From NCBI GenBank assembly GCA_036501565.1, contig DASYAA010000079.1:1-40356 (forward strand): a stretch of 40,356 nt of DNA, in the 5' to 3' direction. Under the pieces are notes generated by a model. The model did no database searches. It had not been told where the DNA came from and saw only the letters and a program-made list of their open reading frames with translations. The DNA is from Verrucomicrobiia bacterium (lineage in GTDB: Bacteria; Verrucomicrobiota; Verrucomicrobiia; Limisphaerales; UBA11358). The translations under genes were made by a program, and so were the position numbers. Positions 9,607 through 37,898 of the stretch are shown one piece after another (position 1 is the stretch's first letter; each line of letters opens with the position of its first letter).

Positions 9607-10508
9607 ACTTTCTCAATTTCCTTTTTGCCCAGCAGCCCGGACGGTTTGACGAGCAAAATTAAAATCAAAATTCCAAACGCGATGGCGTCGCGGTAGGTTG
9701 AGGAAATATAGCCCGCCACGAGCGTTTCGGTGACGCCGATGATGATGCCGCCGAGCGCCGCGCCGGGCAGATTGCCGATGCCGCCCAGCACCGCCGCGAC
9801 GAATGCCTTGAGTCCCGGCAAAATTCCCATGAGTGGATCAATCGCCGGATAATTGACGGCAAACAAAATTCCCGCCGCCGCCGCGAGCGCGGAGCCGAGC
9901 GCAAACGTGAACGAAATCACAACGTCGGTGTTGATGCCCATGAGCGCCGCCGCGTCGGGATTGAACGCCAGCGCGCGCATCGCCGTGCCGATTTTTGTTT
10001 TCTGCACGATGAACCGCAACCCGACCAGCAGCAGCGCGGTCACAATGAACACGATGATTTGATTGCTCGTGACGCTCAAGCCGCCGACGTGGGTGATGGG
10101 ATAGGACGGGATGAGCGCGGGAAATTTTTTTGGCGCGGCGCCGAAGAAAAGCTGGCCGGCGTATTCGAGAAAAAGTGAAACGCCAATCGCGGTGATCAGC
10201 ACGGTCAATCTCGGGCTGCGCCGTAATGGGCGATAGGCGAATCGTTCGATCACAATTCCCAACGCGGCGCAAATCGCCATTGAAATTCCCATGACGAGAA
10301 GGCCGCTCAAAATGGATGGCGTCGGAAAAATCGCGGCGATTTTTGGCGTGAGATAAAATCCGGCGAACGCGCCGAGCATGAAAATGTCGCCGTGCGCGAA
10401 ATTGATGAACCGGAGAATTCCATAAACCATCGTGTAGCCGAGCGCGATGAGCGCGAGAATCGAGCCAAGCGCGAGACCGTTGATGAGTTGCTGCAAAAAT
10501 TCAGTCAT
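9603..10508 (-). CDS. livH: Branched-chain amino-acid ABC transporter permease (LivH type)
   Basis: 301 aa, polytopic. The N-terminus is QQLINGL..GSILALIALGYTMVYG and the motif INFAHGD is present. Confidence 0.9.
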   Translation of the reverse strand: MTEFLQQLINGLALGSILALIALGYTMVYGILRFINFAHGDIFMLGAFAGFYLTPKIAAIFPTPSILSGLLVMGISMAICAALGIVIERFAYRPLRRSPRLTVLITAIGVSLFLEYAGQLFFGAAPKKFPALIPSYPITHVGGLSVTSNQIIVFIVTALLLVGLRFIVQKTKIGTAMRALAFNPDAAALMGINTDVVISFTFALGSALAAAAGILFAVNYPAIDPLMGILPGLKAFVAAVLGGIGNLPGAALGGIIIGVTETLVAGYISSTYRDAIAFGILILILLVKPSGLLGKKEIEKV

Positions 10509-33256: not shown

Positions 33257-34690
<1,434 letters not shown>

Positions 34691-34740
34691 ATCAGCAACT
34701 TGACTCTCAAATAAAATTCTCTAGCCTAATCTGCCCATCC

Positions 34741-34814
34741 TGCCCGATGGTGTAACGGTAGCACAGCAGACTCTGAATCTGTTTGTCATGGTTCAAATCC
34801 ATGTCGGGCAACCA
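34741..34814 (+). tRNA. tRNA-Gln (anticodon CUG), with encoded CCA
   Basis: Hand-folded cloverleaf: acceptor TGCCCGA/TCGGGCA; D arm GTGT-AACGGTA-GCAC; anticodon arm GCAGA-CTCTGAA-TCTGT (U33, CUG, A37); variable loop TTGT; T arm CATGG-TTCAAAT-CCATG; discriminator A; CCA. The U1-A72 pair is typical of bacterial tRNA-Gln. Confidence 0.9.
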
Positions 34815-34816
34815 TT

Positions 34817-35350
34817 TCATTTGCATTTCTCCACAATCTCGTCCGCTTTTTTGTGGCTCACGGCTTCGTAAAAATCGTCATTGCACATCATCACCGGCGG
34901 CGTGCCGCAACTGGCGAGGCACTCGACAAATTCCACCGTGAATTTTCCGTCCGGCGTCGTCTGCGCGCCGTGCGCGTGCGAATCCAAACCGAATTTTTTG
35001 CAAAAATGTTCGCGCAATTCATATGCGCCGCCCAGCGCGCAACTCAACGTGCGGCAAACTTTGATCTGGTATTTGCCCATCGGCTGCGCGCGCAACATTG
35101 GATAAAAGGTCAGCAACTCGTAAATGTTGATCGGCTGCAATTCCAGTTTCTTCGCCGTCCATTCAACGGCTTCTTGCGAAATCCAACCGAATGTATCCTG
35201 AATAGCGTGCAGCACCATGAGCGACGCGGCGCGCTTTTCGGGGTAATGCGTAAGCAATTCTTCCACTTCCGCCTCAAGCGCGGCGGACGCGACGAAATCG
35301 CGCTGGTGTTGCAGCGGATTCGGAATCGGTTCTGTGTGCATCGCGTTCAT
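34817..35350 (-). CDS. nuoE: NADH-quinone oxidoreductase subunit E
   Basis: 177 aa with 2Fe-2S ligand motifs CRTLSCALGG and ECLASCGTPPVMM. There is an ATGA overlap with nuoD. Confidence 0.95.
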   Translation of the reverse strand: MNAMHTEPIPNPLQHQRDFVASAALEAEVEELLTHYPEKRAASLMVLHAIQDTFGWISQEAVEWTAKKLELQPINIYELLTFYPMLRAQPMGKYQIKVCRTLSCALGGAYELREHFCKKFGLDSHAHGAQTTPDGKFTVEFVECLASCGTPPVMMCNDDFYEAVSHKKADEIVEKCK

Positions 35351-37364: not shown

Positions 37365-37898
37365 TCACGCTGCCGCTTCTTCTTTTTTCAAGTGAAACAT
37401 TTTCAAATCCGCGAGCACCGGCTCTTTGCTGATTTTATTTTGCAATTTCATCAGCGCGTCAATCAACGCTTCGGGGCGCGGCGGACAACCGGCCACATAA
37501 ACATCCACCGGCAAAATCCGGTCCACGCCTTGCAGCACGGCGTAACTGCGATACATTCCGCCGGTCGAGGCGCACGCGCCCATCGCGATGCACCATTTGG
37601 GTTCGGCCATTTGATCCCAGACGCGCTTGACGGCGGTGGCCATTTTGTAAGTGACCGTGCCGGCAACGATCATGCAATCGGCCTGTCGCGGCGAAAAACG
37701 CATCACTTCGGAACCAAATCGGGAAATATCGAAACGGCTCGCGCCGACGGCCATCAATTCAATCGCGCAGCAGGCCAAACCCATTGGCATCGGCCAGACG
37801 GAATTTTTACGAAACCAATTGAGCGCGGCGTCAACCGTGGTGACGACAACGTCGCCCTCAATTTTTGAATTATAACCGACTTCGCTTTCAGTTCGCAT
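37365..37898 (-). CDS. nuoB: NADH-quinone oxidoreductase subunit B
   Basis: 177 aa with [16 protein letters not shown] and GCPPRPEAL (N2 cluster ligands). Confidence 0.96.

Follow-up and report, generated by a model that had tools for sequence, protein, structure and literature searches.

The window, by which we mean the whole stretch of 40,356 nucleotides that was analyzed, carries the minus-strand genes nuoB, C, D, E, F, G, and H according to their Pfam matches. ARAGORN found only one tRNA in it, a tRNA-Gln with the anticodon CTG. The gene order is nuoB-C-D-E, then the tRNA-Gln gene on the opposite strand, and then nuoF-G-H (Table 1). The tRNA gene lies inside the 126-nt gap between nuoE and nuoF, with 2 nt between its CCA end and the complement of the nuoE stop codon (TCA, positions 34817 to 34819); both distances had been given in a preliminary description of this DNA and were borne out by the sequence. 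With its 126-nt spacer, the window is the most compact form of the arrangement. The DUF4160/DUF2442 insert mentioned in the same description is real as well, and Pfam places the pair between nuoF and nuoG. The nuo cluster begins at nuoB (window positions 37365 to 37898 and upstream), and no NuoA (PF00507) was called upstream of nuoB in the window or in the distant relatives L201, L206, and L207. In L207, the neighbor upstream of the nuo cluster is a divergent sigma-70 gene.

Table 1. Features at the nuoE-nuoF junction of the window and elements found beside the same tRNA gene in relatives (slot 1 extends from the nuoE stop codon to the 3' end of the tRNA gene)
Feature	Source	Position	Strand	Remarks
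nuoF (NADH dehydrogenase 51-kDa subunit)	Window	33257..34690	-	PF01512, PF10589; next gene on the nuo strand after the antisense tRNA
-35 element, cTTGACT	Window	34699..34705	+	Edge 9 nt from the nuoF start codon (other strand); TTGAC 100% and next T 96% in 184 sequences
-10 element, TAGCCT (TAnnnT)	Window	34722..34727	+	16-nt spacer; T1 100%, A2 99%, T6 99%
Discriminator and short 5' leader of pre-tRNA	Window	34728..34740	+	Predicted from promoter geometry
tRNA-Gln, anticodon CUG, 74 nt	Window	34741..34814	+	U1-A72 first pair, discriminator A, encoded CCA; ARAGORN, Rfam RF00005
nuoE (24-kDa subunit)	Window	34817..35350	-	PF01257; stop codon 2 nt from the tRNA CCA end
tRNA gene	L132	1592-1665		Numbered in tRNA orientation
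Integrase ORF	L132	1689-3098		Numbered in tRNA orientation
Two-gene cassette	L004, L011, L017, L038, L044, L045, L047, L057, L071, L128	Slot 1	nuo strand	Remnant in L035
JAB/DUF4329-like pair	L010, L072	Slot 1
PIN protein and 62-aa ORF	L078	Slot 1
DUF6998 protein	L023	Slot 1
CxxC/His-rich 150-aa protein	L069, L074	Slot 1

The tRNA-Gln(CUG) that the preliminary description had reported on the plus strand was confirmed by both ARAGORN and Rfam. The Rfam family RF00005 matched positions 34741 to 34811 over the full model (1 to 71) with 66 bits, compared with a gathering score of 29 (E value, 2.6e-12), and an encoded CCA follows directly at positions 34812 to 34814. The cloverleaf scores as a tRNA in both analyses and has a 7-nt anticodon loop with CUG. 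According to work on Escherichia coli, the glutamine identity set consists of U1-A72, G2-C71, G10, and a purine discriminator. U1-A72, G2-C71, and G10 are all present in the tRNA-Gln of the window; at the discriminator position, the window has A and 50 of 75 relatives have G, and the third pair is C-G, in contrast to G3-C70 in E. coli. Among the 6,200 codons of the window genes, the glutamine codons CAG and CAA occur 73 and 98 times, respectively. Covariation was assessed with 75 orthologous full copies of the tRNA, including that of the window, which represent 14 sequence variants. Nine stem pairs were variable, and both sides had changed in seven of them. Only 1 of the 294 pair cells was nonstandard, and the anticodon and the CCA were invariant in all 75 copies. 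Such both-sided stem changes, the near absence of nonstandard cells, and the invariant anticodon and CCA point to purifying selection on the tRNA-Gln(CUG) and argue that it is no relic. We regard the gene as that of an ordinary elongator tRNA-Gln(CUG), predicted to be functional.

We then considered how far the arrangement extends among relatives. With the help of NuoF, 80 species-level genome loci with 83 to 95% identity were gathered. Most of their titles read Verrucomicrobia subdivision 3, Verrucomicrobiia, Limisphaerales, or Pedosphaera, and the few other labels look like mis-binned metagenome-assembled genomes (MAGs). A complete tRNA-Gln(CUG), located just upstream of nuoF and on the strand opposite to it, was present in 74 of the 80 loci. 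In three further loci, the tRNA-Gln was cut by the contig end, and in the remaining three, the upstream DNA was too short to judge. The comparison of the nuoE-nuoF spacer that the preliminary description had proposed gave the same answer throughout, as all informative species-level genomes (77 of 77, out of 80) had the tRNA at this junction. That description had also reckoned with an arrangement that was widespread and already annotated as ordinary, and the first part, wide occurrence in the lineage, holds for these 77 genomes.

Metagenome contigs were scanned for the exact pattern of the tRNA sequence, with three variable positions left open, and at least 120 contigs were found. nuoF was on the 5' side of the tRNA and nuoE on the 3' side in at least 90 of them, and at least 26 had nuoF or nuoE on one side, with the other side too short. 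At least three had nuoF and an island, with no nuoE within 3.6 to 8.1 kb, and one had 56 nt of upstream sequence and a cassette of the type found in slot 1, with nuoF and nuoE out of reach. Among the matches listed for these contigs, none had the tRNA in an unrelated context, and the identity to the window proteins went down to 73% for NuoF and to 57% for NuoE. An outward walk, in which the window NuoF, the most distant NuoF, and then NuoB from the next most distant hit served as queries in turn, added eight contigs with enough flanking sequence, reaching identities of 72% for NuoF and 77% for NuoB; one of them is the complete 6.53-Mb genome OW818681.1. An antisense tRNA-Gln(CUG) was found between nuoE and nuoF in all eight. 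Every walked contig with enough flank thus has the tRNA, L203 (124 nt upstream) was too short, and the outer edge of the clade lies beyond the relatives reached. Since the antisense tRNA is present in every relative with enough flank, the layout is best explained as ancestral to a very large verrucomicrobial clade, of at least order level. The tRNA sequence appears to be confined to this single locus within the clade, and the gene is probably the lineage's sole one with exactly this tRNA-Gln(CUG) sequence.

A few irregularities were noted along the way. Eight of 200 contigs (L002, L019, L029, L083, L124, L127, L154, and L182) end in the tRNA or a few bases from it; assemblies fork at this point, probably because co-occurring species have an identical tRNA but different flanks. 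In L201, which is the complete genome OW818681.1 (GCA_942493075.1), a 53-aa ORF was called at positions 9827 to 9988 over the antisense tRNA (9863 to 9936), probably as a spurious call. In L015, the stop of the nuoE frame seems to lie 29 nt inside the antisense tRNA, owing either to a C-terminal extension that overlaps the tRNA gene or to an alignment-end artifact.

To characterize the promoter, the 60 nt upstream of the tRNA were aligned for 189 loci, which gave 184 distinct sequences. TTGACT at positions 34700 to 34705, named in the preliminary description as a possible -35 element, held up, as it was conserved in the 184 sequences. The -10 element named there, CCTAAT (positions 34725 to 34730, with a 19-nt spacer), is present, but the conserved -10 element is TAGCCT, positioned 3 nt earlier with a shorter spacer (Table 1). 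The spacer was exactly 16 nt long in 183 of the 184 distinct sequences, and the commonest forms of the -10 element were TAGCCT, TAGCTT, and TAGTTT. Within the spacer, an A-tract (positions 34713 to 34716) was conserved, and the remaining positions held almost no information. The conservation of the -35 element was independent of the sequence further upstream, and the promoter footprint was unchanged whether the nuoF start was located 45 nt or 627 nt from the tRNA. The stretch corresponding to positions 34728 to 34740 differed in length by no more than 4 nt among relatives. From this geometry, transcription is predicted to start at about positions 34734 to 34736, leaving a leader of about 5 to 7 nt for RNase P. 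Contigs from RNA runs start at positions 34734 to 34736, and these starts may be forks in the assembly graph. Taken together, the alignment indicates that the tRNA has its own sigma70-type promoter, invariant across the clade.

The DNA on both sides of this unit was far more variable. Slot 1, the interval from the nuoE stop to the tRNA 3' end, was measured in 74 loci (73 genome loci and the window). It was 0 to 2 nt long in 21 of the 74, the window among them, and about 46 to 56 nt long in about 20 others, where it consisted mostly of heptamer tandem arrays. Read on the tRNA strand, these arrays are (ACGATTT)3-4 or (GGCTGAA)3-4, for example, in L034, L041, L013, L016, L058, and L063; they are absent from the window (positions 34815 and 34816), and in cassette-bearing loci, the array sits between the cassette and the tRNA. 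The heptamer arrays could be landing pads, scars, or RNA elements. In 17 loci, slot 1 was 268 to 767 nt long (449 to 767 nt in 16 of them and a 268-nt remnant in L035) and held small genes on the nuo strand, whose types are given in Table 1. The two-gene cassette encodes a conserved 65-aa ORF (MKTSLKDWPKVY...) and, downstream of it, a protein of about 130 aa that bears a nucleotidyltransferase-like motif; no Pfam match was obtained for either of them.

Slot 2, the interval from the tRNA 5' end to the nuoF ATG with the promoter included, was 46 to 58 nt long in 45 loci and otherwise 86 to 552 nt long. The longer forms contain hairpins resembling repetitive extragenic palindromes or miniature transposable elements (REP/MITE-like), (CACGYWT)n arrays, or small co-oriented genes. 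When slot 2 exceeded about 80 nt, (CACGYWT)3-4 arrays and REP/MITE-like palindromes (e.g., GCCCACGGTTTCAACCGTGGGC) were seen just upstream of the nuoF ATG in L053, L023, L060, L062, L065, and others. The co-oriented ORFs in slot 2 comprise one of 159 aa in L012 and predicted ones of 135 to 137 aa in L013 and L049. In both slots, the cassettes have the orientation of nuo and begin immediately behind the preceding element. As judged from these comparisons, the tRNA and its promoter are a constant unit placed between two variable slots.

tRNA genes are attachment sites for islands with tyrosine integrases, and the tRNA-Gln has served as an integration site in the sublineage of L121, L132, and L198, unlike in the window. 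In L132, a gene for a tyrosine integrase (PHROG_1; E value, 1.5e-19) begins on the tRNA strand, 23 nt past the CCA. Only L132 has this gene intact; L121 and L198 have decayed copies, and the NuoF proteins of all three are about 80% identical to that of the window. The island cargo is of the defense type; among it are, in L121, a DUF4276 protein and the ORF beside it and, in L198, a 961-aa ORF. In all three contigs, nuoF is intact, and an island of at least 3.6 to 8.1 kb parts the tRNA-nuoF side from any nuoE; since no nuoE was found within that distance, the nuo cluster is physically split in this sublineage. No tRNA-derived repeat was found within the parts of these island contigs that were examined. 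The att-site scar envisaged in the preliminary description, a second tRNA 3' half, was likewise not seen in the window, where a search for the 25-nt tRNA 3' part with up to three mismatches returned no second copy. No second copy of the 3' half was found in the genome loci either, and the slot inserts lacked tRNA-derived direct repeats. The idea that the position of the tRNA reflects a neighborhood shaped by integration events is therefore not supported, as the tRNA is ancestral in the whole clade and has no second 3' half in the window. In a different sense, it is partly right, as the flanks in relatives are hot spots for cassettes and repeats, and an integrase abuts the tRNA in three contigs.

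Next, signals that could end or restart transcription at the junction were examined. No terminator-like site was found in the nuoE-nuoF spacer of the window, and on the nuo strand, no sigma70-like match of at least 8 of 12 positions was found from the nuoE 3' end to the nuoF ATG. The silence of this consensus scan is weak evidence, since the genuine tRNA promoter also escaped it. In the 74 loci compared (the window and 73 relatives), the nuoE-nuoF interval contained a terminator-like hairpin on the nuo strand in 13 loci and on the other strand also in 13 loci, which is a background level of hits, with no conservation of position. Because such hairpins were equally frequent and variable in position on the two strands, there is no conserved stop signal for either transcript. 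GC skew gave no information on the direction of replication.

The RNA data consisted of unstranded, assembled metatranscriptome contigs from mixed communities, in which DNA carry-over is possible. In two wetland runs, tRNA-length contigs had depths of 151 and 263, compared with 13 to 44 over the adjoining 5' end of nuoF; these contigs are unstranded and their depth is inflated, as the tRNA sequence is common to many species. A contig in run X25, with one mismatch and a depth of 11.4, covered positions 34661 to 34765, leading from the inside of nuoF through the tRNA promoter into the tRNA. Two more nuoF-to-tRNA contigs were found in X26 and one, 382 nt long, in X28, and the depth of these contigs was similar to that of nuoF-only contigs. 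Since a plus-strand tRNA transcript cannot hold sequence upstream of its own promoter, the nuoF-to-tRNA contigs point to minus-strand read-through or to DNA carry-over. All of them stop at positions 34763 to 34765, beside a polymorphic tRNA position, so their ends are forks in the assembly graph and not RNA ends. Other RNA contigs join the 3' part of the tRNA to nuoE. No single contig covering nuoE, the tRNA, and nuoF was found in the metatranscriptome runs examined, and the loose-end sequences of the RNA-run contigs had no match to the loci examined.

The two scenarios of the preliminary description, separate transcription units or read-through, are still the two live options. The explanation that we favor, with fair rather than high confidence, is that a functional tRNA-Gln(CUG), reversed relative to nuoE and nuoF, was fixed between these two genes in the clade's ancestor and that nuo transcription reads through it. 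On the plus strand, transcription would start about 5 to 7 nt before the tRNA, RNase P would trim the leader, and the encoded CCA would make CCA addition unnecessary. With no intrinsic terminator behind the gene, the tRNA transcript would then run antisense into the 3' end of nuoE until it is stopped or trimmed. On the minus strand, nuo transcription would pass through the antisense tRNA unit, and nuoB-E and nuoF-N would share a single mRNA in the manner of a noncontiguous operon. Polymerases from the two sides would meet head-on, and the two RNAs would be complementary over about 80 nt or more. Passage of the nuo transcript is the less certain half of this explanation, and we put it at slightly better than even. 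It is favored over separate units by the lack of a conserved terminator or nuo-strand promoter, together with unstranded RNA contigs that cross both junctions; the slot cassettes, oriented like nuo and lying directly behind the preceding element, also speak for it.

Separate transcription of the two halves of the cluster is possible but distinctly less probable. nuoB-E transcription would then end at or in the tRNA unit, by head-on collision or with the help of Rho, nuoF-N would be transcribed from its own promoter overlapping the tRNA unit, and the tRNA would mark an operon boundary. The best argument for this arrangement comes from the three island contigs, in which the tRNA lies beside an intact nuoF with no nuoE within 3.6 to 8.1 kb; nuoF-N is thus apparently expressible in that sublineage without read-through from nuoE. 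In addition, given the near symmetry of the tRNA promoter's -10 region, TAGCCTA, the nuo-strand sequence TAGGCT fits TAnnnT as well. However, the nuo-strand hexamer would owe its first T to a nonconserved base (A in 36%), and the near-symmetric element was rejected as a nuo-strand promoter because it is without conservation support. The region from the nuoE 3' end to the nuoF ATG of the window has no recognizable promoter on the nuo strand, and in the compact form, the nuoF ATG and the tRNA -35 element are only 9 nt apart. A conserved terminator after nuoE is missing as well, and the depth of the RNA contigs that span the nuoF-to-tRNA junction resembles that of nuoF itself.

We propose, as a long shot, that the tRNA unit is a candidate control element of complex I synthesis, either as a head-on valve, whose promoter may be growth-rate controlled, or as a processing site that uncouples nuoB-E from nuoF-N. 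Marginally more doubtful still is that it represents a regulatory device maintained by selection and not a passenger that is tolerated, in which firing of the promoter would throttle nuo transcription into nuoF-N through collision or RNA-duplex cleavage, or in which the mirror-image tRNA, cut by RNase P or RNase Z, would split the polycistron. Position, orientation, and promoter were kept in every genome or contig examined while both flanks turned over, which would suit such a device. Three of the four arms can still form in the antisense tRNA, as hairpins resembling the acceptor, the T arm, and the anticodon arm (-19.6 kcal/mol), and noncontiguous operons show mutual repression (PMC11034616). 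On the other hand, the fixed position is explicable by the difficulty of moving what is probably the sole such tRNA-Gln(CUG) gene out of an essential operon. Nor is a precise geometry with nuoF maintained, as its distance to the tRNA is anywhere between 45 and 627 nt. If a control role proved true, this would be a noncontiguous operon with a stable RNA gene as its opposite-strand member, and the output of the respiratory chain would be tied to translational capacity.

The reading that the tRNA is a recent insertion, a genome-specific integration scar, or a decayed tRNA-like relic can draw on other inserted modules in the nuo cluster of the window, on the fact that tRNA genes are classic integration targets, and on the integrase that adjoins this tRNA in three relatives, but it is highly improbable given that all informative relatives share the arrangement, that compensatory changes keep the cloverleaf, that the promoter is invariant, and that neither the window nor the genome loci contain a second tRNA 3' half; the pseudogene and recent-insertion readings were rejected on these comparative data.

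The tRNA gene itself is routine. Its conserved arrangement is unusual and apparently undescribed, as the full-text literature searched yielded no account of a tRNA at the nuoE-nuoF junction in Verrucomicrobia. A highly conserved promoter of a stable RNA faces head-on into one of the most conserved bacterial operons, and the tRNA has been kept at one junction across a very large and abundant clade from soil, peat, and freshwater, while the adjoining DNA turns over. There is also a practical side, since gene callers put a probably spurious ORF over the antisense tRNA and assemblies tend to break at it.

Compared with canonical bacterial tRNA-Gln(CUG) genes, the gene in the window has the same cloverleaf of 74 to 75 nt, the CUG anticodon, the weak U1-A72 pair, the encoded CCA, and a sigma70-type promoter. 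A canonical example is E. coli glnV/glnX, located within the metT tRNA operon. In contrast, the window tRNA-Gln forms a solitary one-gene unit outside any tRNA or rRNA operon, with no intrinsic terminator, and it is both inside and convergent with a respiratory operon, its -35 box lying 9 nt from the nuoF start codon. The likeness to tRNA-attached islands is shared by L132, with its integrase 23 nt past the CCA, and by L121 and L198, with decayed copies and defense-type cargo at the same place; the far ends in all three lie beyond the DNA examined. In the window, the features of a tRNA-targeted island (integrase, island, and 3'-half repeat) are all absent, and nuoE follows 2 nt past the CCA. 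Mitochondrial tRNA punctuation and mirror tRNAs (PMC2907346, PMC7803006) are similar in that respiratory-chain cistrons have an element with the shape of a tRNA between them, whose complement would belong to a polycistronic transcript. The resemblance goes no further, the organism here being a bacterium with ordinary promoters.

A close parallel is the noncontiguous operon (Saenz-Lahoya et al., 2019, PNAS, as cited in the Staphylococcus aureus atlas PMC11034616), which is defined by cotranscription of the flanking genes and mutual repression (PMC11034616). In both cases, the genes of one functional operon are split by an oppositely transcribed gene, and an operon mRNA produced by read-through would cover the opposite gene from end to end. 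The opposite member here is a tRNA instead of an antagonist protein gene, and the word tRNA is absent from the atlas (PMC11034616). Moreover, the arrangement described here is conserved across a clade of at least order level, compared with one species, and is known from sequence and unstranded RNA contigs. If nuo transcription does pass through the tRNA unit, the locus would be a natural and long-lived case of convergent transcription inside an essential operon, and the idea of the noncontiguous operon would be extended to a tRNA gene.
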